DNA of 64,000 nt from a virus (lineage: Duplodnaviria; Caudoviricetes): IMG/VR virus record IMGVR_UViG_2597490202_000002, positions 21,372-85,371 of that record; one strand, written 5' to 3'. Both the position numbers and the translations under genes were made by a program. The notes beneath the pieces are model-generated. The model had not been told where the DNA came from and made no database searches. It was given only the letters and a program-made list of their open reading frames with translations. Of this stretch, positions 27,143-45,342 are shown one piece after another (the stretch's first letter is position 1; the number at the start of each line of letters is the position of its first letter).

Positions 27143-27284
27143 ATACAAAAACATTAATTATTTTAGTTTAACCTTAAAAATATCTTGATTATTTATTTGG
27201 TTTAACCTAAAATATGCTTGTTTTCGGAATGGTTCTGAAAATGAGAAGCCCAGCTTTCACTGGGCCACTAAATGGAGCTAGGAT

Positions 27285-27356
27285 ATGAAGATTTTCAGAG
27301 TTCTAATCCTAGTTACCGTAGTATTACTCACCTGTTGTTCAGGTACGGTAGTTTAA
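27285..27356 (+). CDS. 23-aa hydrophobic peptide MKIFRVLILVTVVLLTCCSGTVV (Ibs-like candidate toxin)
   Basis: GGAG RBS; promoter TTGATT-17-TAAAAT at 27185-27213; antisense promoter at 27431-27403. Confidence 0.55.
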   Translation: MKIFRVLILVTVVLLTCCSGTVV

Positions 27357-27443
27357 GGTAACTCCTGAAGGGGGAAGGTCGGATGTCCCCCTGACGGCTC
27401 CAACTATAAGCCTTTTGGCTTAAAAGATCAACAAGGAATTTCT

Positions 27444-27662
27444 ATGCAAACTGAAAAACGCTCTCGTGGTCGCCCAAAATCTGGTTTAACTCTTCAGGAA
27501 CTGCAAGCAAGAAGCGAAGCTAAGCGTGGGGTTAAGCTCAAAGGCTTTAAACTTCATCAAGAAACGATTGAGCTTATTGAACGCCTTGCCGAGCAACACG
27601 GTATTTCACAAACACAGGTGATTGTGCAAGCGGTTGAGTTATTTAATCAGAAAGGGGCGTAA
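27444..27662 (+). CDS. Ribbon-helix-helix-like DNA-binding protein
   Basis: RGRP; K.KGFKL...IE.LA...GISQ..VI.QAV; paralog of 29156. Confidence 0.72.
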   Translation: MQTEKRSRGRPKSGLTLQELQARSEAKRGVKLKGFKLHQETIELIERLAEQHGISQTQVIVQAVELFNQKGA

Positions 27663-27805
27663 TGCCCTTTATTCTTTCATTAGCGCCATCCAAAATAGAG
27701 TTTTCCCTAGTTTTTGTTTGACTACACTTAATTTCAGGTTGATGATGCTGAGAATTAAGCATAAACACGTTAATGAAATCAACCAGCTCATCTGCCTAGT
27801 CCCCA

Positions 27806-28069
27806 TTAAAAATTAAACCCCTGCCCGTGTGTTACGACCTTTTCGATTTCTTCGTAGCGGCGGACGTTAAATTTCTCAAACTCTAATACTTTGACTAGGC
27901 TTTCTGCTTTAGCCTTGAGTTGTTCGAGTTCTTGCTGTTGTTTGAAATTCTGTGCGACAAGTTCTGAAATGTGTTCGTTTGCTCGAATAACGGCAAGGGC
28001 TTGCCGTGAGCAGAGTGTTATATAATAGTTTAACTGCTTACGCAGTTTGAAAGGATTGAGGGTTTTCAT
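27806..28069 (-). CDS. Hypothetical coiled-coil phage protein
   Basis: AAGGA RBS; in early leftward operon. Confidence 0.6.
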   Translation of the reverse strand: MKTLNPFKLRKQLNYYITLCSRQALAVIRANEHISELVAQNFKQQQELEQLKAKAESLVKVLEFEKFNVRRYEEIEKVVTHGQGFNF

Positions 28070-28092
28070 AGTGGTTCCTTTGGTCAATCGAG

Positions 28093-28812
28093 TTAGTTAA
28101 GAATTCTACTTTGAGCAACTTCGATCAGTAGTTTGTATTCGTGATGGGTCTTGTCATCGTGGACTTCTTTTGATTTTGATAAAAACTCGTCCACCGTGCC
28201 TGTAAAGCAACCACGAGTAACAATTAACCCAAATTTTCCATTAAAGACCGTAAGCGTTCCATTTTCTGAGCCTACATTACTTGCCCAAAAAATCATTTTG
28301 CGTTCAGAGATAACTGCAAAAGATCTCACCCGAGCATCACCGAACACCCGAGCGATATCGTACACCCGAGCATCACCGCACACCCCAGCGTTACCGTACA
28401 CGCAAGCGTCACCGTACACCCGAGCATCACCGAACACCCAAGCGTTACCGAACACCCAAGCCTTACCGTACACCCCAGCGTTACCGTACACGCAAGCGTT
28501 ACCGAACACCCAAGCCTTACCGTACACCCGAGCATTACCGTACACCCGAGCATTACCGTACACCCAAGCATTATCGTACACCCCAGCGTTACCGTACACG
28601 CAAGCGTCACCGCACACCCGAGCATTATCGTACACCCAAGCATTACCGCTATGATCTAAATTCTTTTCGGTTTCGATATAACCGCCTAATTGGCCTGCTC
28701 CAACTAAACCAAATGTAATAAGTGCTTTAATTCGATAGAGCGTTCTGCCTAAATGTTCTACTGTGTCATCTTTGAGTAGTTCGTATTTCTTTTGTGTAGT
28801 TTGTTCTGTCAT
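28093..28812 (-). CDS. Hexapeptide-repeat (left-handed beta-helix-like) phage protein
   Basis: LYRIKAL..GGYIE.E.NL, GNA.VY repeats, RGCF.GT. Confidence 0.82.
   Translation of the reverse strand: MTEQTTQKKYELLKDDTVEHLGRTLYRIKALITFGLVGAGQLGGYIETEKNLDHSGNAWVYDNARVCGDACVYGNAGVYDNAWVYGNARVYGNARVYGKAWVFGNACVYGNAGVYGKAWVFGNAWVFGDARVYGDACVYGNAGVCGDARVYDIARVFGDARVRSFAVISERKMIFWASNVGSENGTLTVFNGKFGLIVTRGCFTGTVDEFLSKSKEVHDDKTHHEYKLLIEVAQSRILN
28328..28650 (-). repeat. 18-bp tandem repeat, about 18 degenerate units, coding GNAxV(Y/F)
   Basis: Repeating ACCGTACACCCGAGCATT-type units. Confidence 0.9.
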
Positions 28813-29031
28813 TTTTAATTTCCTTGCAATAAAAAACCGCCTGTATTGCTACAAGCGGTTGGTTTTCGTGAAAATGTTGCAATAAAAAAGCCACCGTAAA
28901 AACGATGGCTTTTCTTAAAACTTCTTGAGTTTGTCAGTACACTAATCTATAATGCACTTGTTTTCAGCAATGGTGCTGAAAACGAGCTGGGTCCGACCTT
29001 AAATCTAACCCAACTTTTGGAGGGATAACAT

Positions 29032-29091
29032 ATGCTTTACCGCATTATCCTAGTTATCATTCTCTTAGTAATTAGCTTGCCGGCTTACTAA
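29032..29091 (+). CDS. 19-aa Ibs-like type I toxin peptide MLYRIILVIILLVISLPAY
   Basis: GGAGG RBS; resembles IbsC pattern; promoter TTGAGT-17-TATAAT at 28925-28953; antisense promoter at 29168-29140. Confidence 0.7.
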   Translation: MLYRIILVIILLVISLPAY

Positions 29092-29155
29092 GTTGAATGA
29101 ACTAAGCAGGGGGAGAAATCTCCCTGCTCTTCAAAACTGATATTAAGGATTTATT

Positions 29156-29344
29156 ATGGCATTGTCAAGAAGTGAGATTGTGGCTCGCAGTGATGCAAAA
29201 AAGGGGATGCAAGCCAAAACCTATAAACTTCCGCAAGCGTTGGTGGCTGAAATTGAGTTGTTAGCCAAACAGTGCGGTATCTCTCAAGGATTGTTAATTG
29301 CTCAAGCCGTTGAGCTGTTTAAGCAATCGCAGAAAGGGGCGTAA
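29156..29344 (+). CDS. Ribbon-helix-helix-like DNA-binding protein
   Basis: ARSDAKKG..KTYKL..IE.LA...GISQ..I.QAVELF. Confidence 0.72.
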   Translation: MALSRSEIVARSDAKKGMQAKTYKLPQALVAEIELLAKQCGISQGLLIAQAVELFKQSQKGA

Positions 29345-29385
29345 TGCCCTTTATTAAAACGCCCTCAAAACTAAGGGCGTTGCCA

Positions 29386-30000
29386 TTAATTCACTTTCAA
29401 CGCCTTCAGCGTTTCAATAAATTGCGGAATGTACTTATCAAAGGCTTTCATCAACACAGGATCGGGGTTTTCGGTGTGGATAAAAAGCGTTTGTTTTTGA
29501 TATTCAGGGCAGTAGCTGACAAAATCCCAACTGTCATAACCCGTAACCCATAAGGCGACTTGTACCTGTATGATGTACTCGCTGGGTACCACGCCCTCAA
29601 TGATATATTTGATGTGGGTTTTCATTTTGGGGCATTTGATTTCTAAGCCTTTTCGTAAGGTTGGGATAAGTCCATCGGGGCTTACCATCATATCTTTGTC
29701 GGCATTGCGATATACACCACCAACCTGAACAACATCATTGCCTGTGGCGAACTCATACGCCATTCTTGCTTGTTCTTCAAGCTGATTACCTCGCAACATA
29801 TCGCTGGATTTAAAGCCTTCTGTTAAGCCCTCAATGCTTTCTGCGACCAGTTCGGCAAGGTAGCTTGTCCACGCACTTGATTTTTTACCGCTTGGGGTGA
29901 CGATATTTGACACCCCTGTTGCAGTAGGAATACCTAATCGTGCGGTGAGCCATTCTTCTGTGCCTTGCTCACAGTTGAGTGTGATTAGGTTTTCTATCAT
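29386..30000 (-). CDS. exo: Lambda exonuclease/YqaJ family
   Basis: QGT.EW..R.G..TA, SPDGL, LEIKCP, Y..QVQ. Confidence 0.9.
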   Translation of the reverse strand: MIENLITLNCEQGTEEWLTARLGIPTATGVSNIVTPSGKKSSAWTSYLAELVAESIEGLTEGFKSSDMLRGNQLEEQARMAYEFATGNDVVQVGGVYRNADKDMMVSPDGLIPTLRKGLEIKCPKMKTHIKYIIEGVVPSEYIIQVQVALWVTGYDSWDFVSYCPEYQKQTLFIHTENPDPVLMKAFDKYIPQFIETLKALKVN

Positions 30001-30863
30001 AACGGTATATTTTCCCCTAGGTTTTCGCTTTGTGCATGTGATTTATCAACACGCTCATTCAAGATTTTGATTAAATGTTCAGCTTTGTCTTTCGGTAGTT
30101 GATCAAGGCTGTTTACACCATAGTACGCAATAGCTTTGGCGACATCGGTTTGTGTAATTTGGATAAGTTGATCGAGTTGTTGGCGTTGTTCATCAGTGAT
30201 CCTAACAACGCCATCTACATCGATTACGGTTTGTTGTGGTGAAGCTGGATTAATAGGCTCTTCAGTTATCTCATCAGCAGTGATTACACCGCCCAATTCA
30301 TCAGGAAATGCTTTACGCAATGCACCCGCTTCAGCACATTTAGCAAGCTGCCCTCGAGGGCGTTTCGTCCACATTGAATTAACTTTATATTTTCCTGTTC
30401 GTTGTTTGCCTTCCCATATTTCTGTTATTGCACAGGCTTCAGTAAAATACTCAGTATGAGAAAATGCACAGCGTTCACCATTAACAAAACGATAAACAGT
30501 TACTTTGCACCATTCAGGAGCATTCACACCAAGATATTCTATAGTATCGCCAAATACAGGATCATCTTGCCCTGCCATTTGCCTGGTACGAAATGCTGTA
30601 ATTCGTTGTTCATAAATACCCGGCATAATTACATCACGCCATTTTTTTTCTCCTGTTTTTGCATCCGTTACGCTCATTGGCACAATATGACAAGGTTTCT
30701 TGAGAATATCCATTTTACGAGCCTTGCAATAATCAATCGCAAGTAAAATACTTTCGTCTTTCGCACCAGGGAAAATGCTGTTTTGTAATGTACTCCATAC
30801 TGCGTGGTCTATGCCACGTTCAGAAAGTGCGGTTTGAATGTTGGATGGTAAGTTTGTTGTCAT
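29997..30863 (-). CDS. bet: Single-strand annealing recombinase Bet
   Basis: YCKAR..D..KKP.HIVP; MW.KRP..QL.KCAEA.ALRKAFP. Confidence 0.9.
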   Translation of the reverse strand: MTTNLPSNIQTALSERGIDHAVWSTLQNSIFPGAKDESILLAIDYCKARKMDILKKPCHIVPMSVTDAKTGEKKWRDVIMPGIYEQRITAFRTRQMAGQDDPVFGDTIEYLGVNAPEWCKVTVYRFVNGERCAFSHTEYFTEACAITEIWEGKQRTGKYKVNSMWTKRPRGQLAKCAEAGALRKAFPDELGGVITADEITEEPINPASPQQTVIDVDGVVRITDEQRQQLDQLIQITQTDVAKAIAYYGVNSLDQLPKDKAEHLIKILNERVDKSHAQSENLGENIPL

Positions 30864-30872
30864 AATTTATCC

Positions 30873-31805
30873 TTATTTTGCTTTATTAAGTGAAACACAA
30901 TCCCCAAACTTCGCTTTAAGCTCACGAGCAATATTAACAGCTTGGGATTGAATGGTTTGATTTAATCGAATGGTTATCACAAAATCCCCTAAAGGCTCTG
31001 TGGTTTCCGTTTTTGCAAAATCCTGTGGATTTTCGACCGCTTGTTGCTGTGCCATTTCATCTGCAATAGCTTTTGCCTCCGCTTGAACTTTTTCCGCCTC
31101 AGCTTTTGCTTTAGCCTCTTGTTCTGCCTTGGCTTTAATTTCCGCCTCTCTCTGTTCTTCTTCGGCAATGCGTTGCTGAATGATTGGCTCTAACTCATCA
31201 TCTCCTGCAATCAACATTAACCAGTCTTTAAACAGGTATTCGTAATGAATTGGAATGAGCTTTCTGCGTGCAGAAATTCGAGCTGCCTCTGCTCCGATTT
31301 CTGCGGTAATGGCGGTTTCTTCGGCGTTCACCGCACTTGTTAAAGTTGCCAGTGTACTTCTACGTTTAGTCGCATCTTCAAGGCGTTTTTTGATATTTTC
31401 CTTTGGAATATTACGCTCAAGGGCAAGCGATACATCGCTTTCGTGACTGCCTTTGATTGTTAAAATTCGTTCAAAGGCTTGAGAGATAATACTTTCTTTA
31501 ATCTCTGCTTTTCGGTTTTTGACCACTTTTTCACGGTTTAAACGTTCTTGTCTGAAACGTTCAGCGATTTGTTCTGCTGTCGAAATTAACTCTGCGATTT
31601 CTCCGCTATGCGTTTGTTCAATCGCTGTGCGGATTTTATCTTCAATTTCTTTAAGCTCTTTCACTTCGCTATCTGCCTTAGCAAAATCGTCATCGGTTTC
31701 AAAGGTGGTCGTGAGCGTTGCAAGGTAGGCGTTAGCTTGTTCTTCAAAGGTTTTGATGTTGGTTGAAAGGACTTTGCTTTCGGTGGATAGAATTAGGTCT
31801 AGCAT
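30873..31805 (-). CDS. Coiled-coil protein associated with recombination genes
   Basis: 310-aa ORF directly upstream of bet. Confidence 0.78.
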   Translation of the reverse strand: MLDLILSTESKVLSTNIKTFEEQANAYLATLTTTFETDDDFAKADSEVKELKEIEDKIRTAIEQTHSGEIAELISTAEQIAERFRQERLNREKVVKNRKAEIKESIISQAFERILTIKGSHESDVSLALERNIPKENIKKRLEDATKRRSTLATLTSAVNAEETAITAEIGAEAARISARRKLIPIHYEYLFKDWLMLIAGDDELEPIIQQRIAEEEQREAEIKAKAEQEAKAKAEAEKVQAEAKAIADEMAQQQAVENPQDFAKTETTEPLGDFVITIRLNQTIQSQAVNIARELKAKFGDCVSLNKAK

Positions 31806-31819
31806 TTTAAAATCTCTCT

Positions 31820-31957
31820 TTAGTCAATAAAATGATTAATATCAGGGTCTTTACAAGCTTTTGCATAACGTTTCCAGACGGGCAAGTCTGTGTCATCGTC
31901 ATCATCCCTGTCGTATTCGTAATTTTCTTTTGCGATAGCTCGTTCAAGGTCGTCCAT
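31820..31957 (-). CDS. 45-aa acidic protein MDDLERAIAKENYEYDRDDDDD...
   Basis: AGGAG upstream; fills the operon gap. Confidence 0.5.
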   Translation of the reverse strand: MDDLERAIAKENYEYDRDDDDDTDLPVWKRYAKACKDPDINHFID

Positions 31958-32483
31958 TCTGTTGCTCCTGTGTTTTCTTCACCATTTCCGCTAATGCTCC
32001 GAACATCTGCGGTTCAAGTACAATCGTGTTGGCGTTGGCTCTTCTGTCTAGCATTAGGCGGACATTGCCGTTTTTATCTACGAGATAGCCATTTAAGCCG
32101 TAAGGGGTAAATGGTTTTCGTTTGGGCTGTGATGGCTTCGGCTTCGGCTCAACTTGTTCTGTTGGTGCTGTTTCAATCTCAACTTGTTCTGTTGGTGCTG
32201 TTTGCTCAACCTGCTCCGCTTCGATAATTGTTCCTTTTAGCCCAACTTTTTTAGTTTGCTCAATTACAATCGGGATATGCCCTTTGATTTCAGGGTAGTG
32301 AGGGATAGCTCTTTTACCGACTAAGCCTTTTTGACTGTTATATCTATCAATGGCTTTGTTTAAATTTCGGATAGCAAGAATTTCCGATGTCATTGGTACG
32401 CCTTGAAACTCTAGATGTTTATCCACCCACATTTCACCGAAGTATTTTTTATTTGGGTTTTGTAAAATTTGAAGTTTGATCAT
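31944..32483 (-). CDS. Hypothetical early protein
   Basis: Coupled ORF with duplicated TAPTEQVE. Confidence 0.7.
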   Translation of the reverse strand: MIKLQILQNPNKKYFGEMWVDKHLEFQGVPMTSEILAIRNLNKAIDRYNSQKGLVGKRAIPHYPEIKGHIPIVIEQTKKVGLKGTIIEAEQVEQTAPTEQVEIETAPTEQVEPKPKPSQPKRKPFTPYGLNGYLVDKNGNVRLMLDRRANANTIVLEPQMFGALAEMVKKTQEQQNGRP

Positions 32484-32800
32484 CTTTTTGCTCCTACAAT
32501 CAGTTTGTTAAGTTGGTTTTGGTTATGTTGTTTAATCAGCTTCACATCTTCACCTGTAACGTTATCAGGCGGTGGAAGATGTAGAGCTAATGCGTTGTAA
32601 TTTACCTCTTCAGGGGTGATTTCAGCTTGTTTGAAGTCATCTTCCGTCCAAATCTTTTCTGCTTGGAAATTGCTTTCTACGGGCAGAGTAGAGACAAGCT
32701 CAGGCTCTTCACAGCCAGTTAAACTTCCGCCTGTCACAAAGGCGATAAGCAAGGCACCGAGTAGGTATTTCAGGTTGAGTTTTTTGATAAGTGTCTTCAT
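32480..32800 (-). CDS. Putative lipoprotein
   Basis: Basic-hydrophobic N-terminus and LTGC lipobox. Confidence 0.6.
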   Translation of the reverse strand: MKTLIKKLNLKYLLGALLIAFVTGGSLTGCEEPELVSTLPVESNFQAEKIWTEDDFKQAEITPEEVNYNALALHLPPPDNVTGEDVKLIKQHNQNQLNKLIVGAKR

Positions 32801-32882
32801 TTTTTATTCCTTTTGTTGAATTTTGGGTGTGAGAAACCACCGCAGGCTTTCGGGGAAAGTGCGGTGGGGTTGGGTTTTGGGT

Positions 32883-33527
32883 TTAATTAAGTTTTAATCG
32901 TGATTTGATACGCTCAAATTCAATCGGGTTACTTTCCTTAAACGGTTCGATAAGGCGTTTAAGGATTGGTAAGTTTTCATCAATGAGGCGTTTGTACTCT
33001 CGATGATGGCTGTACACCGCAGGGTGGAAGTTTGAGCCGATGGCTGCTAGGGGTTGTTCGAGTTCGCCTAGTAGGTCGTTCATATTGCGGTGTGAGATAA
33101 GTAACCAAACGAGGCTGTAGATTTCCGCACCGGTAAACGATGCCGGATAGCGGACTTCGGGTTTTACAAGCGGTTGGTTTTGTTGTTCATTTTGCAAAAT
33201 TTCACGGTCGAGAATATCCAGCACCCATTTGCGGAACTCTTTGGCGACTTTGGTTCGGGCGAACATTGCGATTAGGTGACAACCACGCAGACTGAAAATT
33301 CTCTGCTCAATTTGGCGGTTAGAACCGTTAATGCCATTCGTAGTCAAATTGACTACGGTTGTCATATCGGCAGTAAATTCATCAGCATTTCTTTCATAAA
33401 TTTTAGCAATAGAATTAGTATGTTGATATTGTAAAGCTAATGCTAAATCACTTGATGAAATATAAGTTTGGTTGTTACGTTGGATCGCAGTTAATGCTAC
33501 GTTTTGGAAAGTAAGTTGATTTGACAT
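32883..33527 (-). CDS. Antirepressor (BRO-like N-terminus, P22 Ant-like C-terminus)
   Basis: RIFSLRGCHLIAMFART.VAKEFRKWVLDILD. Confidence 0.85.
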   Translation of the reverse strand: MSNQLTFQNVALTAIQRNNQTYISSSDLALALQYQHTNSIAKIYERNADEFTADMTTVVNLTTNGINGSNRQIEQRIFSLRGCHLIAMFARTKVAKEFRKWVLDILDREILQNEQQNQPLVKPEVRYPASFTGAEIYSLVWLLISHRNMNDLLGELEQPLAAIGSNFHPAVYSHHREYKRLIDENLPILKRLIEPFKESNPIEFERIKSRLKLN

Positions 33528-33529
33528 AA

Positions 33530-33740
33530 TTTTGTACCTTTCGTTTTAGTTCAGTAGTCGATCACTTAGTAGGTGATCGGGCTTCAACTACCAACGAAAG
33601 ATGGCGGAGCTTATTTCCACAAGGGTATTGTATTAGGCTCTCTCGACCCGATCATAACTGATCGCTACCTAAATTTTAGGTACAAAAAAAACCGCTTTGT
33701 ATCGGAGCGAGTAACCGACTTTCGTTGTGTAGTGCGGTTA
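33530..33740 (-). ncRNA. C4-like antisense RNA locus with target boxes, copy 2
   Basis: Same core as copy 1 with boxes AACGAAAG/CTTTCGTT. Confidence 0.6.
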
Positions 33741-33769
33741 TCTTAATCCGAAGTAGCGGTTTTTGTCAA
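33740..33769 (-). promoter_or_regulatory. Cassette promoter F (TTGACA-18-TAAGAT)
   Basis: One of seven related promoters. Confidence 0.7.
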
Positions 33770-33775
33770 TGGGAT

Positions 33776-34489
33776 TTACTCTGTTTCCGAGATTTTAAAT
33801 TGAACAGCAACGAGAGAGTAATCATCAATAGGTGATTTCTCTATTCTTTTTTGTAAGGTTGCTGAAAATTTCACAATGCTATTCATCGTTTTTTCAGAGA
33901 AGCGTGGGCGATGTTCCCAAAAATGATGAGCACCGTCTGACATAATGTAGATGGAGACCTCATTATTCTCATCCTTAATTTCTGACATCGGAATAAAGAA
34001 TTCATCTGGTTTCATTTCGACTTGTGTAGAAATTGCCGTGGTGATGACATTTTTTCCTGATAGCTCTTTTAATTCTTTCTTTGTATAGATTTTTTCATCA
34101 AATAACTTTTGATGAGTTGTGTGATCTTTCGTTTTTTGGCGAAGTTTATTACCTTGCTTTATATATAGACGACAGTCACCAATATGCCCTATGCACAATC
34201 CTTCTTGTGTTAAATAACCAAATGTTAAGGTTGTAGATGCTTGGTTATATTCTGGGTCAAGTTTTTTAATTTCAGCCAAACTAGCGGAAAATACATTATT
34301 GTAAGCTAGTTCTAGGTTTTTGATCGCGATTCTGGAGGCAATTTCTCCGCCTTTGTATCCTCCAACACCATCAGCCACTGCAAATAAGTAACCGTTATTG
34401 TGTTTAGTGCAAGATAGAATATGATCTTGATTTTGCCGTATTTGTTCTTTTGGAAAAGAGAATGATGCACTAGCAATTAAGTTAATCAT
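33776..34489 (-). CDS. PP2C/PPM-family protein phosphatase
   Basis: NQD, VADGVGG, GDCRLY, DHT, SDG, DDYS motifs. Confidence 0.92.
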   Translation of the reverse strand: MINLIASASFSFPKEQIRQNQDHILSCTKHNNGYLFAVADGVGGYKGGEIASRIAIKNLELAYNNVFSASLAEIKKLDPEYNQASTTLTFGYLTQEGLCIGHIGDCRLYIKQGNKLRQKTKDHTTHQKLFDEKIYTKKELKELSGKNVITTAISTQVEMKPDEFFIPMSEIKDENNEVSIYIMSDGAHHFWEHRPRFSEKTMNSIVKFSATLQKRIEKSPIDDYSLVAVQFKISETE

Positions 34490-34493
34490 TGAA

Positions 34494-35252: not shown

Positions 35253-35270
35253 ACGTTTTCCTTCAGAGCA

Positions 35271-36203: not shown

Positions 36204-36280
36204 TGGCGACCGCAGAGAGACTCGAACTCTCAACCTACTGCTTAGAAGGCAGTTGCTCTATCCGATTGAGCTATGCGGTC
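36204..36280 (-). tRNA. tRNA-Arg(UCU)
   Basis: Cloverleaf GACCGCA/TGCGGTC, anticodon loop CTTCTAA, TTCGAGT T-loop, encoded CCA. Confidence 0.93.
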
Positions 36281-36865: not shown

Positions 36866-36890
36866 CCTTAAGTCCTGTTAGAGCAGGGCT

Positions 36891-37379: not shown

Positions 37380-37491
37380 TGTTAAAGAGCATTGAGCCGT
37401 AGCTCGTTTTGATGGGTGTATAATACACTATGTATTTTATAAGTAAATACCAAATGTATTATTTTTCGCAATAAAAAATACAAAATGTATT
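37380..37491 (-). promoter_or_regulatory. oL: three AATAC-N5-GTATT operators plus boxA GCTCTTTAACA
   Basis: Palindromes at 37422, 37446 and 37477; boxA at 37380-37390. Confidence 0.78.
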
Positions 37492-37699
37492 TAATTGATT
37501 GATTTTAAAGGAAAATAAATTTTGTGAAGTGTGTTTGATTGCTTGTTTTTTAATCATTTTCTTGGTGTCAGGAAGATGTTTTTGCAAAAAAATGATGGAA
37601 TGTTACCGCTTGTTGTGAGTGTTAGGTGGGGGTAGTTAGTGTAGTATGGAGTAGTTAGTAGTAGATTTTAGGCAAAAGAAAACCGCCACAAATGGCGGT

Positions 37700-38170: not shown

Positions 38171-39095
38171 GTTCTTTTATAAAAAGCTCCATTTGTTGGA
38201 AAAGTGTCTGTTCGTTTAGTTTTCCCGTATCTGTGGTATCTACTTCGACCTGTTTTGTTCTTTGAAGTTCACTGCCAGTTACCGATGTACCATTACGAGT
38301 TTTGAATGAGATATTATCTAAATCAGACACAGGTTTCAACATTGCTGAAAAAACTTTCTTAATCTGATCTGGTGAGTTTTTGGTCGGTTTCTTAATTTGT
38401 ATAAGTAACTTAGCGGAAACAAGTTGACTGAAATCAATATCATCAAAATCTTCGGCATCGACAAAGAATTCTTTGATATGTTCAACTGCAAGGTGAGTAA
38501 TATCTTTAAACCGAGAAACCATTGATGACCCTGAATTGTCTTGTTGCGTTGCATCAAGATTTACACTGTTATCGTTATTAGGATCTTGAATAACAAAGGA
38601 TCGAATATTACTTAAATCATATTCTTCTTTTAGTTCAATCACAGGATTGAGTTCGATTAATTCATTTAGTAGCCAGTTTAGGTAGGTTTGTAAGCGTGTA
38701 ATCGTCGTTCTTCCTGGTAAATTTGTTACTACAAAACGATTGGAAAGTAAAAAATAGTAGTGGTTTTTATAGATGGCACTGGTATTAAGTTTTGTATTGA
38801 GTAAATCGCTGATCGAAAAATTGGCTTTTTGAAAGAGCTTTTCATCAATATGCTGCACATTATCCCCTGGTGCAATCCGTAGCATTGTGGCAAAAACCAA
38901 TTGGTCTTTCTCTGTATTGAAGTGAGAGATTAAATCTTCTTCTTTTTTCGGGTCATCTTCACTTAACAGCATTCTTCTTTCATTGCTCGATTGTGAATTA
39001 TCGAGTTTCTGCTTTAATAAAACCGCAATTTGAAGAGGTTTGCTCACTGTGTTATTTACAATTTCAAAGGCTCTAAGTTTTACTTGTTTGTTCAT
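38148..39095 (-). CDS. Soluble 315-aa protein in rexA position
   Basis: Directly downstream of cI on the same strand. Confidence 0.8.
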   Translation of the reverse strand: MNKQVKLRAFEIVNNTVSKPLQIAVLLKQKLDNSQSSNERRMLLSEDDPKKEEDLISHFNTEKDQLVFATMLRIAPGDNVQHIDEKLFQKANFSISDLLNTKLNTSAIYKNHYYFLLSNRFVVTNLPGRTTITRLQTYLNWLLNELIELNPVIELKEEYDLSNIRSFVIQDPNNDNSVNLDATQQDNSGSSMVSRFKDITHLAVEHIKEFFVDAEDFDDIDFSQLVSAKLLIQIKKPTKNSPDQIKKVFSAMLKPVSDLDNISFKTRNGTSVTGSELQRTKQVEVDTTDTGKLNEQTLFQQMELFIKELENAGKN

Positions 39096-39134
39096 TTTTT
39101 CTTCCCATCATCTACCAATAAAATTCAACAGTTG

Positions 39135-39788
39135 CTACAAGTAGCTTCTATGCTCAACCGCTACGCCTATAATACGAATGTCTTGTTTCATTGAACTGAG
39201 AGTTGGGAAATCTTGATTTAATGGCACTAGCTCAAAATGTGGATTGCCTGATGGTGATAACTCTCCAAGTTCACGATAACGTTTTAAGGTCGCTTCGCCA
39301 TTGCCATTTACTGCTGCAACAAAATCGCCAGGATGTGGGCGTTTTCTGACATCAATCAACACTAAATCCCCTTCGCTGAATTTAGGCTCCATAGACATTC
39401 CTGACACTCGTAAAAAAAACGCATTTGGACCTGCGTCAATTTCTGTATCAATATAGTCATAGCCTTCTGAGTCTCTAAAATCATAAGTTTCTGTCCACAT
39501 ACCAGCTTGAATAGAGCTAACAAGAGGATAAGCTCGAGATTTTTTTACAGAAGTTGGGGTTATATTTGGATCGAAATCCTCAATAGTACCATCACCATTT
39601 AAGATAACCTTATTCACTCCTGTTAGATTTATCATTTGAGCAACTTCATTTACATTAGGCATTCTTCTTCCTGTAAGCCAATGACCAATAGCTCCCTGAG
39701 TCTTCCCCATTGATTCTGCAATATCATCTTGTCTTAGATTTTGCTCTTGCATTTTTTCACGTACATATTGGTTCCATTGTTTTTTCAT
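39135..39788 (-). CDS. cI: CI-like repressor (HTH plus S24 peptidase)
   Basis: HTH; QAG cleavage site; V.G.SM.P and T.KR catalytic motifs. Confidence 0.93.
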   Translation of the reverse strand: MKKQWNQYVREKMQEQNLRQDDIAESMGKTQGAIGHWLTGRRMPNVNEVAQMINLTGVNKVILNGDGTIEDFDPNITPTSVKKSRAYPLVSSIQAGMWTETYDFRDSEGYDYIDTEIDAGPNAFFLRVSGMSMEPKFSEGDLVLIDVRKRPHPGDFVAAVNGNGEATLKRYRELGELSPSGNPHFELVPLNQDFPTLSSMKQDIRIIGVAVEHRSYL

Positions 39789-39820
39789 ACTACACCCACC
39801 TGAACAAAAATTAACTAATT

Positions 39821-39895
39821 ATTACTTACCGTATTAAATATTCAAAATACAAAAAGTATTTTGTTTTTGACTTTATAAAATACCTTATGTATTAT
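39821..39895 (+). promoter_or_regulatory. oR: three A(A/T)TAC-N5-GTATT operators overlapping pR (TTGACT-17-TATTAT)
   Basis: Palindromes at 39821, 39846 and 39879 match the oL consensus. Confidence 0.8.
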
Positions 39896-39923
39896 TAATG
39901 CATTTTTAATACAGGAGCTAAAA

Positions 39924-40130
39924 ATGAACAGAATTTCTGAGTTCAGAAAAGCTGCCAACCTTACTCAAGTCGAAATCGCTAAATTGATCAATAAAACTCA
40001 AGGTGCTTTTGGTCATTACGAAACTGGCTTGAGAGAGCCGTCACTTAGTACAGCAAAAAAGATTGTGCGAGTACTTAATGAACACGGTGTTGCTTGTTCT
40101 TTAGACGACGTTTTCCCTGTTGGCAGTTAA
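39924..40130 (+). CDS. cro: Cro-like repressor
   Basis: HTH protein divergent from cI. Confidence 0.88.
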   Translation: MNRISEFRKAANLTQVEIAKLINKTQGAFGHYETGLREPSLSTAKKIVRVLNEHGVACSLDDVFPVGS

Positions 40131-40150
40131 TTTACCCAAAGGAGTGCGCA

Positions 40151-40426
40151 ATGGCACGCAATGAATTAAGCAAGTCTGCAATGAAGAATGCGGACTTAAT
40201 CAGACAGAAGGCATCAGAGACGAAAGATGCTCAAGCGGCAGAATATGTTGGTGTAGATGCATCAACGATTTGTCGTTTTAAGGCAGAACATTTAGACAAA
40301 TTCTGTGCTTACCTTGATTTTTTAGAATTGGAAGTATCAGAGAAAGGTTTAAATCGTTTGACAGACAGTGAACTGGATGCCCTCAAGCTATTTGCAGAGA
40401 AGGGCGTTCATGCTATTGGAAAATAA
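40151..40426 (+). CDS. cII: CII-like regulator
   Basis: AE.VGVD.STI.R HTH; follows cro. Confidence 0.75.
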   Translation: MARNELSKSAMKNADLIRQKASETKDAQAAEYVGVDASTICRFKAEHLDKFCAYLDFLELEVSEKGLNRLTDSELDALKLFAEKGVHAIGK

Positions 40427-40469
40427 AAACCCACGCTGCAACGTGGGTTAGTTACGGAGGTTTTCACTT

Positions 40470-40652
40470 ATGAATGAACATCATACCGAGTTGCATTCTA
40501 GCGAAAAATCGTCCTTTTGGCAAGAGATGGAGTATCGAAAGCGATGTTATGCCGAACTAGAGCGTCGTAATTTTGCAGGTAACGTGGACTATGACGAGAT
40601 TTTTAACCAGATTGATAAGGATTTAAGCGATGAATGCAGTAGTAAAAGTTAA
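40470..40652 (+). CDS. Hypothetical protein
   Basis: GGAGG RBS; overlaps replication gene. Confidence 0.55.
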   Translation: MNEHHTELHSSEKSSFWQEMEYRKRCYAELERRNFAGNVDYDEIFNQIDKDLSDECSSKS

Positions 40653-41520
40653 AGAAACACCGATTTTTAAGTTAGGCGAAAACAGACAATCACAAGAGGC
40701 TAGGAAAGTGAGTGTTGATGATGGATTTACGGCAATTCCAAATGAGCTTCTAAAGGCAATTTTACGCTCAAAAGTATTGGGCTGGAAAGGCTCTTACTTG
40801 TTGGCAACCATTCTTAAAACGCTTTCTTGGCATAAAGAAAGTGATTGGTTTACTCACTCTCAAGTCTGCGAAATGATGGGCATTGAACCAACAAAATATC
40901 ATGTCAATCAACTTTCAGCAGCACGTAAAGAGCTTATCAAAGAGCAAGTCTTATTTGAAGATGGTAAAAAAACGGGTGTAAATCTAGATGTTTTTAACTG
41001 GGAAATGGTGAATCCCGAAAAAGTAGGGAGTTCCCGAAATAATAGGGAATTAGTTCCCGAAATTGTAGGGAATAAGTATCCCGAAAAAGTAGGGAACACA
41101 AAAGAAACTATTACAAAAGAAAAAATAAATAATACCCCCTTACCCCCTAAAGGGGAATCGGCTATCGCCGATGAACAACCGCAAGCGGTGAAATGTGAAC
41201 AACATTCTGCAAAACCAGAAAAGATTAAATCACCGCCTATGGACTATCAGGCGGTAGCTGATTTGTATAACCAAGCTAATCAGAATTCGGGTTCAAGATT
41301 GCCGATGGTGGAAAAAATCAATGATGCTCGTCGGAAAGGGATTAAAAAATTAATGGCTGAGCTTAGAGAGCCAAGTTTGGAATGTGCTGAGCTGTATTTC
41401 AATGCGTTGTTTGCAAGCCTGCGGCCGTTTCATACGGGTGAAAATGGCGGTTGGGTGGCTAATTTTGATTGGGCAATTCGCCCTGCGACGGTGCTGAAAG
41501 TTCGTGAAGGAGCGTTGTGA
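40630..41520 (+). CDS. Replication initiator (lambda O-like)
   Basis: DDGFT.IPN.L, W.K..DW; internal iterons; W.ANFDW. Confidence 0.85.
   Translation: MNAVVKVKETPIFKLGENRQSQEARKVSVDDGFTAIPNELLKAILRSKVLGWKGSYLLATILKTLSWHKESDWFTHSQVCEMMGIEPTKYHVNQLSAARKELIKEQVLFEDGKKTGVNLDVFNWEMVNPEKVGSSRNNRELVPEIVGNKYPEKVGNTKETITKEKINNTPLPPKGESAIADEQPQAVKCEQHSAKPEKIKSPPMDYQAVADLYNQANQNSGSRLPMVEKINDARRKGIKKLMAELREPSLECAELYFNALFASLRPFHTGENGGWVANFDWAIRPATVLKVREGAL
41013..41096 (+). repeat. Four replication-origin iterons TCCCGAAA-N3-TAGGGA
   Basis: Four direct repeats inside the O-like gene, followed by an A-rich tract. Confidence 0.85.
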
Positions 41521-42875
41521 TGTCTGAAAATCTGCGAAAAATCACTTACGAGGTCGAGGTAAGTACCGTTGGTTCTCTGTTGAATGGTGGATTGACGGCT
41601 CAGGCGAGAGAGGTGTTGAGTTGGTTAAAACCTGAGATGTTTTTGACGTTCAAGCTAGGTGAAATCTATTCAAACATTCAACGCCAAGCGAGCAAGGATA
41701 ATCTGATTGATATGTTGTTACTGAGTTCTGAGTACGGTGTTCAGCTTGCCGATATGGCGGAAACCATAAAATCAGTGGTGTCTGCATCAAACTTAACGGG
41801 ATATGCTACGAAGGTTTTTAATTTCTATCAGCGTAGAGAAGTGTTGAAAGTACTTGTGAGCCTTGCTGGTGAGTTGAATTTAGCTCGTGATGAACAGTTA
41901 GATGCGATTGCAACAAAGGGCGTTGAGCATATTTCTGCGTTGCTGAATAAGAGTGCGAGTGTTGCACCTGCGGGAATGGGGAGTTTGCTTGATGGCTATT
42001 ATCAACTACTGCAAGACAGGCATAAACCTGAATTTAAACAGCGTTTGTTGTTTACTGGTATTCAAGCCTTGGATGACATTTTGCAAGGCATTGATGAAAC
42101 CGATATTTGTGTCGTTGGTGGGCGGTCTGGTAATGGTAAAACCGAAACGGCAATTACGTTTACGAAAAACATTTTAGAGCAAGGTGGTTCGGTGTTGTTT
42201 TTCTCTCTTGAGATGAGCAGACAACAAATTATGGATCGTCTGATTGCCAGTGCAAGCGGTGTTAATTCTGCAAAACTTCGTAATCCTGAATGGTTGAGTG
42301 ATGAAGATTTTGCTCGAATGAGTGAGGCTACAAGTGTGATGAAAGATCAAAAGCTCTTTGTGGTGGATAAAGGAGCTTTGTCTGTTGAAGAGATTACGGC
42401 GATCACAGAAAGGCATTTGGCTGAGCATAAAAAGTTAAATGCAGTGGTGGTTGATTATATTGGTTTGGTTAATCATGGGGCGTTAGATGGGCGAGTGAAC
42501 CGTACTTATCAGATCGGAGAAACCGTAGAGCGATTAAAGGCATTTTCTAAACAAGTTCACGTCCCGTTTATTTTACTTTCGCAGTTAAGCCGAGATGCAG
42601 AGGGTTCTACCCCAAATAATGCAAACTTGAGTGATTCCAAGGCGTTAGAGAATGTTGCAAGCCAAATCATTATGGTTCACAACCAGCGAGATAAGGAAAC
42701 AAATGAACCTGCGAGATATACGCATTGGATTGTGACAAAGAACCGTAACGGCAAGGTTGGGACTGCTTATGTTGAGTTCCAAAATGGACGATTTATTGAA
42801 TGTGATCAGGCATTGGCTTGGGAATCTTTCCAGAAGAAAAATGAACAACAGAGAAGAGCGAATAAGGGGTTTTAG
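41517..42875 (+). CDS. Phage DnaB-like replicative helicase
   Basis: GRSGNGKT, FSLEMS, VVDYIGL, LSQLSR, KNRNG. Confidence 0.92.
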   Translation: MMSENLRKITYEVEVSTVGSLLNGGLTAQAREVLSWLKPEMFLTFKLGEIYSNIQRQASKDNLIDMLLLSSEYGVQLADMAETIKSVVSASNLTGYATKVFNFYQRREVLKVLVSLAGELNLARDEQLDAIATKGVEHISALLNKSASVAPAGMGSLLDGYYQLLQDRHKPEFKQRLLFTGIQALDDILQGIDETDICVVGGRSGNGKTETAITFTKNILEQGGSVLFFSLEMSRQQIMDRLIASASGVNSAKLRNPEWLSDEDFARMSEATSVMKDQKLFVVDKGALSVEEITAITERHLAEHKKLNAVVVDYIGLVNHGALDGRVNRTYQIGETVERLKAFSKQVHVPFILLSQLSRDAEGSTPNNANLSDSKALENVASQIIMVHNQRDKETNEPARYTHWIVTKNRNGKVGTAYVEFQNGRFIECDQALAWESFQKKNEQQRRANKGF

Positions 42876-42952
42876 GTGAGTTTGGATTTTATTAAGAAGG
42901 TAGGTGGGTATTTTAGAAAAGAGCAGGTTGGTAGGTAAGGAGGTTGGTAGGT

Positions 42953-43381
42953 ATGGAGCATAAGCAAAAATACTTTTTACGCACTGAGCAAATCAAAAAC
43001 AATGCCCTTGAATTTGTGAAAGCGTTGCCGATAGATGAGAAAAAGCCGTTAGTGATTGATGTGAAGCCTATTACTCGTAACCTTGAGCAAAATGCCAAAT
43101 TCCACGCAATGTGCGGCGATATTGCTAAACAGGTGCAATTTAACGGCGAATGGCTACCGCTTGAAGCGTGGAAGGTTCTTTTAATTTCTGCTCACGCAGA
43201 AGCAACGAAAGAAGGCTCTCGTTTGGTAACAGGTTTAGAGGGTGAATTAGTGAATATCCGTGAAAGCACTGCTGACATGAGCGTAAAACGAATGGCAAGT
43301 TTAATCGAATATGCAACTTCGTGGGGTGTTTCTAATGGGGTGCATTTTAATGACAGATGGAATTTTTGGGGGGTGAAATGA
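42953..43381 (+). CDS. ninB: NinB/Orf recombination protein
   Basis: RNLEQNAKFHAM..DIA.Q; ST..MS......LIE. Confidence 0.85.
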   Translation: MEHKQKYFLRTEQIKNNALEFVKALPIDEKKPLVIDVKPITRNLEQNAKFHAMCGDIAKQVQFNGEWLPLEAWKVLLISAHAEATKEGSRLVTGLEGELVNIRESTADMSVKRMASLIEYATSWGVSNGVHFNDRWNFWGVK

Positions 43382-43731
43382 TGGAAATTAAATCTTTTTC
43401 TTTTGGAAAATTAATTGCGGATTTAGCTATTGTTGGTGGCTTTGTTTATTCGCACTTGTATCTCACGGATAGTGCAGTAGTAAATGTTTATATTTGGGCT
43501 TTCTGGGCATTTTCTATTTTAACTTTAATGTCTGCGTTTATTAAGCCCACTAAGTTTTTGTTCACGGAAAACAGAGCCAAGCAAATGATTATAAGTGAGT
43601 TAACTATTAGCTTGGTCTTGGTTTATTTTGGGTATCCAGTATTAGCTACGGTCGGTTTTATATCAACTCTTGCTTATGCTGGCTGTAGAACTGTAAAGAA
43701 CAACAAGAAAACAGGTAAACACAATGAGTAG
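43378..43731 (+). CDS. Hypothetical membrane protein
   Basis: Several hydrophobic segments. Confidence 0.6.
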   Translation: MMEIKSFSFGKLIADLAIVGGFVYSHLYLTDSAVVNVYIWAFWAFSILTLMSAFIKPTKFLFTENRAKQMIISELTISLVLVYFGYPVLATVGFISTLAYAGCRTVKNNKKTGKHNE

Positions 43732-43904
43732 TTACTTCTGCCCAAACTGCCAATCAATTCTTAAAGACTGGCGTAGGTTTTCTGAAAAAGTCAGAGATTG
43801 ATAAGGTAAAACCGTTTGAATGTACTGGCTTGAAGTGCACTAAGCGGTGGAGTGAGGAAGAATTGGAGGCATTTAATGATAAAGCCGAAAGTGAAAAAGC
43901 GTAA
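43724..43904 (+). pseudogene. Small zinc-ribbon ORF frameshifted in an A5 run
   Basis: CPNC in one frame and CTGLKC..RW in the next. Confidence 0.4.
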
Positions 43905-44445
43905 ATGCAAATGCTGTGGTGGTGAGTTTAAGTCTGCGGATAGCTTTAGAAAATGGTGTAGTGCTGAATGTGGTGTGAAACTTGCCAAAATAGCCCAAGA
44001 GAAAGCTCGTCAGAAAGCCATAGAAAAGCGAAATCGAGAAGAAAGGGCAAAGATTAAAGCAACGAGAGAACGCTTAAAATCTCGTTCTGAATGGCTTAAA
44101 GACGCTCAGGCTGTTTTTAATGAATACATTCGTTTACGAGATAAAGATGAGCCTTGTATTTCGTGTCAGCGTTTTCATCAAGGGCAGTATCACGCAGGGC
44201 ATTATCGCACGGTAAAAGCGATGCCAGAGCTGAGATTTAATGAGGACAATGTTCATAAACAATGTAGTGCTTGTAACAATCATTTGAGCGGAAATATCAC
44301 AGAATACCGTATCAACCTTGTACGTAAAATCGGGGCAGAGCGAGTAGAAGCATTGGAAAGCTATCACCCTCCTGTGAAGTGGTCGGCTGAGGATTGTAAG
44401 GAAATTATTAAAACGTATAGGGCGAAGATTAAGGGGTTGAAATGA
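43876..44445 (+). CDS. ninG: NinG/Rap endonuclease
   Basis: FNEYIRLRD..PCISC, AGHY, LRFNEDN.H.QC..CN. Confidence 0.9.
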   Translation: MIKPKVKKRKCKCCGGEFKSADSFRKWCSAECGVKLAKIAQEKARQKAIEKRNREERAKIKATRERLKSRSEWLKDAQAVFNEYIRLRDKDEPCISCQRFHQGQYHAGHYRTVKAMPELRFNEDNVHKQCSACNNHLSGNITEYRINLVRKIGAERVEALESYHPPVKWSAEDCKEIIKTYRAKIKGLK

Positions 44446-44819
44446 TTAGATTGCATATCAGCATTGACGATATTCTACGCGTTTGGGTCCGTCGTTGGGC
44501 TTCTCATCGTGGGTGTCGTGGTTATCCATCATTACAATCTTTTATGCGTGAGGCAACTGCTCAAATTACAAAGTATAGTATTGATGAACTGTCAGAGGAA
44601 CAGTATCTTAAGCTAGATGAAGCTGTGATGACATTACACGATTTGAATTTGGAAGCCTATCAGGTGCTAATGGCGGTGTTTTTACAGGGGCAGGATAAGA
44701 AGAATATTTGTCTTGAAATGCAGATCTCACCGAGAACCTATGACAACCGTTTACGCACCGCACGAGATTTTATGGAAGGGGCGGTATTTGGCTCGGGGTT
44801 GATTAGACTGAAGTTTTAG
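44442..44819 (+). CDS. Late antiterminator Q-like
   Basis: Follows ninG and precedes pR'; C-terminal HTH with ..A.DFMEG. Confidence 0.7.
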   Translation: MIRLHISIDDILRVWVRRWASHRGCRGYPSLQSFMREATAQITKYSIDELSEEQYLKLDEAVMTLHDLNLEAYQVLMAVFLQGQDKKNICLEMQISPRTYDNRLRTARDFMEGAVFGSGLIRLKF

Positions 44820-44827
44820 GCGTATTG

Positions 44828-45046
44828 CTACGCCTGATGTTGCCGATAAATTTCACAAAGTTTTTTAATGGCTTCGGCTTTCGTTCCACCGATTTCAGCA
44901 AGTACTGACGCAAATTCGTCCGCAATAGGCGTTTCCATACGCACAGAAAATTGCTTAACCTTGCCTTCAGCAAGCATACGTTTGTTATATTCGTTCGCAG
45001 TTTTAGAACGAAGTTTGCGAGAATGTTCAGTCATTGAATTTGCCAT
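44828..45046 (-). CDS. Small DNA-binding (RHH-like) protein
   Basis: YNK....KQFSVRM...F...L..IGG.K.EAIK.L. Confidence 0.65.
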   Translation of the reverse strand: MANSMTEHSRKLRSKTANEYNKRMLAEGKVKQFSVRMETPIADEFASVLAEIGGTKAEAIKKLCEIYRQHQA

Positions 45047-45134
45047 AGTTACCTACTTGATTTTTTAAAACGTTGGTTGTATAGTTTAGGAACTGCCTAG
45101 CAGTGGGGGCAACCACCGCTAGGACTTTATCTGA

Positions 45135-45197
45135 TTAGTAAGCTGATGAGCTTAACACAATCAGAATTAAGAAGATGATGATTTGATAGGTTTTCAT
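45135..45197 (-). CDS. 20-aa Ibs-like peptide MKTYQIIIFLILIVLSSSAY
   Basis: AGGA RBS; promoter TTGATA-17-TATAAT at 45300-45272; antisense promoter at 45057-45085. Confidence 0.68.
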   Translation of the reverse strand: MKTYQIIIFLILIVLSSSAY

Positions 45198-45342
45198 CGT
45201 CTTAGTTCCTATTTTTAGTTGAGCGGTGAAAGCCGCTCTTCTTATTTCCGCCCTATTGCGAAAACAAATATATTATAATTTACAAATAATAATTTATCAA
45301 GAATTATTTGTAAGTTTTCAGATTTTCATTCAAGGTTATCAA

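Follow-up and report, generated by a model that had tools for sequence, protein, structure and literature searches.

Prophage toxin cassettes that couple an Ibs/Sib-type layout to a ribbon-helix-helix gene, a candidate autorepressor

Why should a gene for a tiny hydrophobic peptide that already faces a convergent antisense promoter be followed, three times in one prophage, by a gene for a small ribbon-helix-helix (RHH) protein? The question arises from 64,000 nucleotides (nt) of viral DNA (Duplodnaviria; Caudoviricetes), bases 21372-85371 of the 85371-bp provirus record IMGVR_UViG_2597490202_000002 of IMG/VR; this whole stretch is called the window below. Its three loci (Table 1) share one layout: a sigma-70 promoter with a 17-bp spacer, a 5' hairpin, a second hairpin, a Shine-Dalgarno sequence, an open reading frame (ORF) for the peptide, a GC-rich hairpin, a convergent promoter, also with a 17-bp spacer, and then an ORF of 62-72 amino acids (aa). 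In our best reading, each locus is a toxin cassette of three components, complete in itself, that the prophage carries as an accessory gene. We put at roughly 75% the probability that toxin and RHH gene form a bicistronic operon that is autorepressed by the RHH protein and silenced by a convergent, Sib-type antisense RNA. The layout, its conservation, the RHH fold, the lack of a separate RHH promoter, the co-variation of operator and protein, and the strong, uneven transcription of a homologous cassette support this reading.

The proposed scheme has three steps. First, the near-consensus sigma-70 promoter would yield one mRNA carrying a 5' stabilizing hairpin, the membrane peptide ORF (of the Ibs type at loci 2 and 3 and of another class at locus 1) and the RHH gene. 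Second, the convergent promoter between the peptide stop and the RHH start would yield a Sib-type antisense RNA of ~155 nt, which would cover the peptide ORF and its ribosome-binding site, end in the sense leader, and block peptide synthesis. Third, the RHH protein, presumably as a dimer, would bind a 12- to 16-bp palindrome in the promoter spacer, with the outer half-sites apparently read by an extra N-terminal helix, and repress its own operon; this repression would keep the toxin mRNA under the level of the antisense RNA. Peptide toxicity, antisense silencing, DNA binding, repression and any role in prophage addiction or phage exclusion are inferences.

Layout and peptide classes

The preliminary description of this DNA had proposed three copies of a module made of an Ibs-like peptide, an antisense promoter and an RHH regulator. 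Every part that it listed is present within one base of the place given: three sense and three convergent promoters, all with 17-bp spacers, three small hydrophobic peptide ORFs, and repeats of GTTTAACCT at 27166 and 27200. The inverted repeats TTACAAATAAT also exist, the first starting at 45280 rather than 45279 (45280-45290 and 45303-45313). The leader is conserved in an alignment of the three loci, and the whole layout was found again in many other genomes. In view of this conservation, a chance pattern of ORFs or promoters was rejected.

The peptides of loci 2 and 3 (19 and 20 aa, ending in PAY and SAY) fit the Ibs size class of 18-20 aa. The locus 1 peptide has 23 aa and another C-terminus, outside the Ibs size and pattern, and belongs to a class that we term CSGTV, which also lies upstream of RHH genes in L106, L112, L113, L214 and L215 (L and G numbers denote loci and genomes of our surveys). 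Peptides of this class have the recurrent ending C(C)SGT/AV(IS) and a lipobox-like L-[TA]-[CS]-C, LTCC in locus 1, and they replace Ibs before type A RHH genes (see below). If processed, such a peptide would leave a lipidated product of just 6-7 residues. We rejected the idea that the locus 1 peptide is a decayed Ibs, since it represents a recurrent class of its own. The Pfam profile Ibs_toxin (PF13956) matched neither the locus 1 nor the locus 3 peptide; a related 22-aa peptide reached 11.8 bits against a cut-off of 27, sequences this short scoring little, and protein-family searches with the peptides returned nothing usable.

On the antisense strand, the Rfam model SIB_RNA (RF00113) scored 44.5 bits at locus 2 (E 7e-7) and 32.7 bits at locus 3 (E 1.3e-4), both under its gathering score of 56, and had no match at locus 1. 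The matches at loci 2 and 3 span all 147 model positions, promoter part included. The predicted antisense RNAs are ~155-160 nt long and span the whole peptide ORF together with its ribosome-binding site; their predicted folds are much more stable than those of shuffles, with z values of -3.46, -4.18 and -5.30 for loci 1, 2 and 3, respectively. A T-run follows the second leader hairpin on the antisense strand and was called as a terminator at loci 1 and 3, and the locus 2 antisense RNA is predicted to fold at its 3' end into a stem followed by a U-rich stretch.

The claim of an Ibs-like type I toxin-antitoxin system gains support at loci 2 and 3 from full-model RF00113 matches, although these stay under the gathering score, and needs correction at locus 1, whose peptide is of a different class. 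Judged from their sequences, loci 2 and 3 are very probably Ibs/Sib-type type I cassettes, and locus 1 appears to be the same layout with another peptide. Membership in the family suggests that the peptides are toxic; growth arrest has been reported for Salmonella IbsA in an abstract.

The downstream protein and its transcript

Two types of protein follow the peptides. Those of loci 1 and 2, and of a fourth copy elsewhere in the record, are of type A (phrog_3887, "transcriptional regulator"; E 3.6e-30 for locus 1), and that of locus 3 is of type B (phrog_27481, unknown function; E 2e-44). The Pfam family RHH_1 (PF01402) gave 16.0 and 15.6 bits for loci 1 and 2 against a cut-off of 20.5 and no match for locus 3. 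No NCBIfam family exceeded its cut-off with these proteins; the locus 1 protein matched a plasmid replication regulatory protein family weakly, at E 0.004 and far under the cut-off. The AlphaFold2 model of type A, with a predicted local distance difference test (pLDDT) value of 89, consists of an N-terminal helix (residues 5-15), an extended segment (16-26) and two further helices (27-40 and 44-60). Its best Foldseek match is CopG, with a template modeling (TM) score of 0.86 and a root-mean-square deviation of 0.7 Å across 41 columns; the Foldseek E-values are weak, which is normal for a protein of this size. In the type B model (pLDDT 82), the elements follow one another as in type A, and the first helix is longer. 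Foldseek returned weak rows alone for it (a TCP domain, ParD2), and the type B profile matches the RHH domain of NikR and CopG at E 6-7e-4. The two types align with each other in hhalign at E 3e-6 over 58 columns, and a strand-helix-turn-helix is found in both models. Since the models, the CopG and NikR matches and the alignment of A with B agree, both types are RHH proteins with an added N-terminal helix, and the RHH-like gene of the preliminary description can be regarded as a genuine RHH gene.

Many type II antitoxins are RHH proteins, and MazE, ParD, VapB and RelB are among the fold and profile matches. One could then imagine the RHH protein as a type II antitoxin that neutralizes the peptide itself, whether or not it also binds DNA. 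This is highly improbable, given that the proteins are 57-80 aa long without a C-terminal toxin-binding extension, that their extra element is an N-terminal helix co-varying with DNA (see below), and that unrelated peptide classes are found with one and the same RHH type. Terminators close the RHH genes, and no partner ORF adjoins them. Membership in a type II system was accordingly rejected, as there is neither an adjacent protein toxin gene nor a toxin-binding extension.

The RHH gene should be read from the toxin promoter, because no promoter of its own is visible and the hairpin after the peptide lacks a following T-run. We scanned the 140 nt after the peptide stop of each unique module (64 of type A and 23 of type B) for promoters with a score of at least 11.5. 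A sense-strand promoter between peptide and RHH gene was found in 0 of 87 modules. An antisense-strand promoter was found in 81 of them (59 of 64 type A, 22 of 23 type B), its -10 hexamer ending a median of 48-49 nt after the peptide stop. These counts support the co-transcription that had been proposed for the RHH gene.

RNA data came from a cassette of another species (L144 in genome G042), in which the RHH protein has the same sequence as gp36 of Mannheimia phage vB_MhS_1152AP2. Two RNA-seq runs from 2023 were kept as contigs, which carry neither strand nor proof of a single transcript. Depth was nil to the left of where the RHH terminator lies and reached ~2200 on the single unitig that covers the RHH gene and the intergenic region; it was 2800-4800 at the peptide ORF, 330-700 in the sense leader, and 140-520 upstream. 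The cassette is thus transcribed strongly and unevenly, with abundant short RNA species over the ORF. An 88-nt unitig on the peptide ORF bears sequencing-adapter letters at both ends in both runs. At L144 1288-1382, adapter-flanked, strandless unitigs of 88 and 37 nt have ends 7 and 14 nt before the peptide start codon, with the Shine-Dalgarno sequence between the two positions; these ends could mark a processing site.

The abundance of the RHH mRNA region in these contigs would also suit a quite different arrangement, in which the small ORF is a leader peptide, the RHH protein is a payload with some other target, and the antisense RNA controls RHH via leader translation, as in antisense-controlled plasmid replication operons. 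The exchange of peptide classes while RHH and operator stay, and the weak match of the locus 1 protein to a plasmid replication family, point in the same direction. However, the gap between peptide stop and RHH start (18-139 nt, mostly 59-111 nt) makes direct translational coupling unlikely, and the ribosome-binding site of the RHH gene lies outside the antisense RNA. No second target was seen, the operators not recurring in the window beyond chance. Moreover, the peptides of loci 2 and 3 group with Ibs/Sib cassettes that also exist without RHH, and the RHH-linked cassettes share DNA identity of 77-81% with E. coli ibs/sib loci. We consider the leader arrangement unlikely and retain the bicistronic toxin-RHH operon.

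Linkage across genomes and the candidate operator

We examined how firmly peptide and RHH gene are linked in 151 Pasteurellaceae species genomes. RF00113 had 91 matches at E <= 0.01 in 54 of these genomes, the best at 55.6 bits and none at the gathering score. An Ibs-like peptide lies on the opposite strand in 89 of the 91 (L065 and L093 are doubtful), and an RHH gene lies directly downstream in 60 (46 type A, 14 type B). The other 31 Sib-like loci are orphans without an RHH gene and are found mostly beside tRNA-like sequence. Two orphans, L045 and L050, have in the promoter spacer a near-palindrome, TTCGGTGTGTCGAA, that resembles the TCGG operator class described below and may be a remnant left after loss of the RHH gene.

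In the reverse search, the type A profile had a two-peaked result, with 79 matches at 64-112 bits and then none above 36 bits. By comparison of coordinates, 46 of the 79 coincide with Sib matches. Examination of the other 33 revealed a small hydrophobic ORF 18-111 nt upstream in 31. Of these ORFs, 25 are Ibs-like, nine of them identical copies from a single genome; 3 belong to the CSGTV class and 3 to another. A small hydrophobic ORF therefore precedes 77 of the 79 strong type A matches, and the two RHH genes without one have truncated or odd starts. The type B profile had 25 matches at 102-133 bits, the next at 46 bits. Fourteen are at Sib matches, and nine of the other 11 have a peptide (one of them partial, at a contig end), so that the ORF is present in 23 of 25. 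The preliminary description had offered its proposal for refutation by RHH homologues that mostly lack the upstream peptide; with a peptide upstream of 100 of 104 RHH genes, the proposal survives this test.

The cassette is also found beyond this sample. In IMG/VR, 148 relatives were found and 80 kept, and the peptide is present in 78 of the 79 with upstream DNA. In a phage collection, type B was absent and type A was confined to 15 records, all of Mannheimia phages; the phage records examined annotate neither the peptides nor the antisense RNA. Strong type A matches occurred in 22 of 401 genomes of an order-level sample, and 10 of 11 loci examined there have the full layout, L159 being without an intact RHH frame. 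The 2.9-Mb genome G032 carries nine identical cassettes (L124-L132; peptide MNVRLAIIIILLVGLTVSLPAY, type A RHH) on nine contigs, which suggests that this cassette rides on a multicopy element.

The RHH-linked cassette L157 comes from another member of the same GTDB order, with a genome of 4.4 Mb. Its ibs/sib part has 60-80% DNA identity to loci in 5,426 of 5,426 complete E. coli genomes, where these loci carry the annotation Ibs family toxin. With this DNA query, the RHH-linked form was found in only one of the 5,426, in a prophage of strain D53-1 (NZ_CM161506.1). That cassette (L165 4086-4387) is located between an antitermination gene and a holin and is annotated as an Ibs family toxin plus a ribbon-helix-helix domain-containing protein. 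Its surroundings are tRNA genes with a KilA-N gene on one side and the holin on the other.

RHH-linked cassettes have a palindrome of 12-16 bp in the 3' part of the toxin promoter spacer. At locus 1, the second repeat, GGTTTAACC at 27200, lies in the spacer and is the proposed operator, of a Q/TAGG-like class. At type B promoters, palindromes include the -10 hexamer or, as at locus 3, flank the -35 hexamer. The operator-like repeats of the preliminary description are at sense promoters, with the amendment that the candidate operator consists chiefly of a palindrome within the spacer. Where the hexamers match the consensus and the spacer has 17 bp, a site at this position fits repression. GTTTAACCT occurs 3 times in the window against 0.73 expected, and the operators of the window loci do not recur elsewhere in the window beyond chance, which fits a dedicated autoregulator. 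Compared with mononucleotide shuffles, the palindromes of single promoters are mostly weak, the regions being AT-rich; we therefore rely on position and co-variation as evidence instead.

The half-sites in the 64 unique type A modules follow the residue in column 9 of the type A profile. Lysine goes with TCGG..CCGA (9 of 9), asparagine with TGTA..TACA (11 of 12), valine with TTAG..CTAA (16 cases) or TTGG..CCAA (7 cases; together 23 of 24), and glutamine with TAGG/TAGT..CTA (13 of 19). All 7 TTGG cases have asparagine at columns 10 and 13. The observed purity of the classes was reached by 0 of 10,000 permutations. Operator distance correlates best with the N-terminal 17 columns of the RHH protein (Mantel r 0.485), and columns 6, 9, 10 and 13 are all on the N-terminal helix of the type A model. 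L190 pairs EIVNRSD with TTAG, as opposed to EIVNRSN with TTGG, which suggests that the third base is read by column 13. Palindromic operators that co-vary with the protein suggest that the RHH protein would dimerize and bind these sites, and they lend support to the autoregulation proposed in the preliminary description.

The classes were defined after viewing the first data set and then applied unchanged to later sequences, many of them related to the first set, in part closely, so that the test is only partly independent. The code fits all 10 order-level loci (judged by eye) and the E. coli prophage (TAGGTGTACCTA with DIQ). Of the new IMG/VR pairs with a confident promoter, 32 of 39 fit; the other seven fall outside the regular-expression classes, and two of these have the expected palindrome with one changed base.

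Co-variation of this kind could stem from common descent, the RHH gene being a passenger on an Ibs/Sib transcript and the palindromes being bound by another factor or by none. Operator similarity does track the intervening DNA as well (r 0.46), individual palindromes are often nonsignificant against shuffles, and RHH is absent from 31 of 91 Sib-like loci. Yet a partial Mantel r of 0.39 (p <= 0.0005) persists after controlling for the DNA between operator and RHH, and the signal is strongest in the N-terminal helix, not elsewhere in the protein. Between operator and RHH, the peptide cassette is also shuffled: L104 and L046 share RHH and operator with unrelated peptides, L110 and L112 do likewise, and a single peptide sequence is found with several RHH/operator classes. 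With a code that mostly held in later sequences and an upstream peptide kept by 100 of 104 RHH genes, a mere passenger is improbable, and autorepression of the operon remains our preferred explanation.

A number of results nevertheless weigh against an autorepressed, antisense-silenced operon. RF00113 stays under its gathering score at loci 2 and 3 and is silent at locus 1, PF13956 fails at loci 1 and 3, and RHH_1 scores the locus 1 and 2 proteins below its cut-off. A third of the Sib-like loci are orphans. The glutamine class fits loosely, seven later pairs escape the code, operator distance correlates with intervening DNA, the classes were drawn up post hoc, and the modules are related and not independent of one another. 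Avoidance of similar operators by co-resident cassettes found no support, with 3 of 46 same-genome pairs having at most 3 operator mismatches compared with 3.6% of 1,784 other pairs. The RNA contigs, strandless as they are, come from another species' cassette, and their sense leader depth is 7-10 times under that of the ORFs, which is outside the simple model unless processing removes the leader. Two raw-read RNA runs had zero reads on the cassette and hence provided no test.

The same provirus record has a fourth cassette outside the window, found by an RF00113 search of the whole record (30.7 bits), with an Ibs-like peptide, a 63-aa type A RHH protein and the palindrome TTCGGTGCACCGAA in the promoter spacer. 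A Q-like gene directly precedes this cassette and also locus 3. Elsewhere in the window, positions 28093-28812 (-) encode a 239-aa protein made mostly of ~20 tandem GNAxVYG-like repeats (repeats at 28326-28643); a Mannheimia phage homologue is annotated as a polymer-forming cytoskeletal protein, and the repeat DNA has 68-78% identity to phages of Streptococcus, Vibrio, Aeromonas and others. The prophage also contains a tRNA gene at window positions 36207-36280 (-) (Rfam tRNA, 72.9 bits).

Table 1. Positions of cassette features in the window (last row, cassette elsewhere in the record)
Feature	Position	Strand	Details
Locus 1 sense promoter	27166..27213	+	TTGATT-17-TAAAAT; -35 27185-27190, -10 27208-27213
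Locus 1 leader	27220..27266	+	5' terminal hairpin 27220-27242; second hairpin 27247-27266, a terminator when read on the antisense strand
Locus 1 peptide ORF	27285..27356	+	23 aa, MKIFRVLILVTVVLLTCCSGTVV (27285-27353)
Locus 1 antisense unit (predicted)	27240..27431	-	Promoter TTGATC-17-TATAGT 27431-27403
Locus 1 antisense RNA (predicted)	~27396 to 27240	-	5' GC hairpin 27370-27391; terminator 27266-27247
Locus 1 type A RHH gene	27444..27670	+	ORF 27444-27662, 72 aa, RGRPK N-terminal extension; terminator 27652-27670
Locus 2 sense promoter	28925..28953	+	TTGAGT-17-TATAAT; candidate operator TCAGTACACTAA at 28934-28945 in spacer
Locus 2 leader and peptide ORF	28960..29091	+	5' hairpin 28960-28983
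Locus 2 Ibs-like peptide ORF	29032-29091	+	19 aa, MLYRIILVIILLVISLPAY (29032-29088)
Locus 2 Sib-like antisense unit (predicted)	28972..29168	-	Promoter TTGACA-17-TAATAT 29168-29140; RF00113 match 29017-29168
Locus 2 antisense RNA (predicted)	~29133 to 28975	-	3' stem followed by a U-rich stretch
Locus 2 type A RHH gene	29156..29352	+	ORF 29156-29344, 62 aa; terminator 29334-29352
Locus 3 sense promoter	45272..45313	-	TTGATA-17-TATAAT (45300-45272), inverted repeat TTACAAATAAT on both flanks
Locus 3 leader and peptide ORF	45135..45265	-	5' hairpin 45265-45244
Locus 3 Ibs-like peptide ORF	45197-45135	-	20 aa, MKTYQIIIFLILIVLSSSAY (45197-45138)
Locus 3 Sib-like antisense unit (predicted)	45057..45252	+	Promoter TTGATT-17-TATAGT 45057-45085; RF00113 match 45057-45215
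Locus 3 antisense RNA (predicted)	~45092 to 45250	+	Terminator 45221-45238
Locus 3 type B RHH gene	44828..45046	-	72 aa
Fourth cassette, outside the window	G000:C1:13985-14130 (L003 1322-1760)		Peptide MFKYIILVIILLLWSLPVY

Relation to known systems and significance

With the E. coli ibs/sib loci (RF00113, PF13956), the window cassettes share a hydrophobic peptide of 18-20 aa (with a final AY at loci 2 and 3), a convergent promoter, and a predicted cis-antisense RNA spanning the whole ORF. The convergent cis-antisense arrangement across the whole ORF is how T1TAdb presents Ibs/Sib (PMC8594479). Unlike the E. coli loci, the cassettes add an apparently co-transcribed RHH gene and a palindromic candidate operator in the toxin promoter, occupy prophage accessory positions, include the non-Ibs peptide of locus 1, and score under curated cut-offs.

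The copG-repB operon of pMV158 is under dual control by a repressor and an antisense RNA. Its likeness to the cassettes lies in the autorepression of an operon by an RHH protein, and CopG is the best structural match of type A. There, one transcript carries the gene of the RHH repressor together with its target gene, and the promoter of that operon is repressed by the RHH protein (PMC2724298). In pMV158, however, the RHH gene comes first and a replication initiator is controlled, whereas the cassettes have the peptide first, the antisense RNA on the peptide ORF, no replication gene, and an extra N-terminal helix. The immI region of P22 (arc, ant, sar) likewise combines, on one transcript, the RHH autorepressor Arc with a small antisense RNA from an in-operon promoter. 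Arc chains are among the type A fold matches; in P22, an antirepressor rather than a membrane peptide is controlled, and gene order and antisense target differ.

A third-component repressor that is an RHH protein is known from omega-epsilon-zeta, and the omega repressor is also among the type A fold matches. SmuATR is a tripartite type II system with a third, separate repressor (PMC11951105). The antitoxin of such tripartite type II systems is a protein, in contrast to the antisense RNA predicted here. Protein control of type I toxin promoters is attributed to a host regulator such as LexA, which governs transcription of the toxin in tisB/istR-1 besides the RNA antitoxin (PMC11951105). LexA is the host's global repressor; it is neither dedicated to the toxin nor encoded in the same operon.

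The preliminary description knew of no account of this architecture. Pasteurellales homologues of Ibs have been in print since 2010, with one in Haemophilus influenzae 86-028NP and seven in Haemophilus somnus 2336 (PMC2887945). Our literature search found no paper linking ibs/sib with an RHH gene in main texts (the supplementary Pasteurellales tables and trees of PMC2887945 were not covered). Nor is an RHH gene beside ibs/sib mentioned in the available parts of PMC2887945, PMC8594479, PMC5367252, PMC10204968, PMC4986893 and PMC11951105. Thus, the Ibs/Sib kind is known, and the putative dedicated repressor and its candidate operator are new, together with the spacer palindrome of the toxin promoter whose half-site co-varies with the N-terminal helix of the RHH protein, the reverse linkage counts, and the RNA depth profile.

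A bolder proposal, which we advance tentatively and do not expect to hold in full, is that RHH-linked cassettes are a distinct and widespread class of toxin switch with three components. In it, a strong toxin promoter would be restrained both by a labile, dedicated repressor and by an antisense RNA; loss of the prophage, or an infecting phage that shuts off host expression, would derepress this promoter, and transcription through the antisense promoter would then free the membrane peptide. The switch would include a residue-to-base code of the N-terminal helix, with lysine, asparagine, valine or glutamine at column 9 and asparagine versus aspartate or glutamate at column 13. If true, this code could be used for designing orthogonal repressor-operator pairs.

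Most units of this kind are missed by annotation. A gene for the putative dedicated repressor belongs to most of the prophage-borne Ibs/Sib cassettes in Pasteurellaceae, and cassettes elsewhere in the same GTDB order, one E. coli prophage among them, have it too. Should the repressor act as proposed, it would add a transcriptional layer to type I systems and supply small natural repressor-operator pairs whose specificity follows a readable pattern. It would also open a route to asking what triggers these toxins in lysogens.

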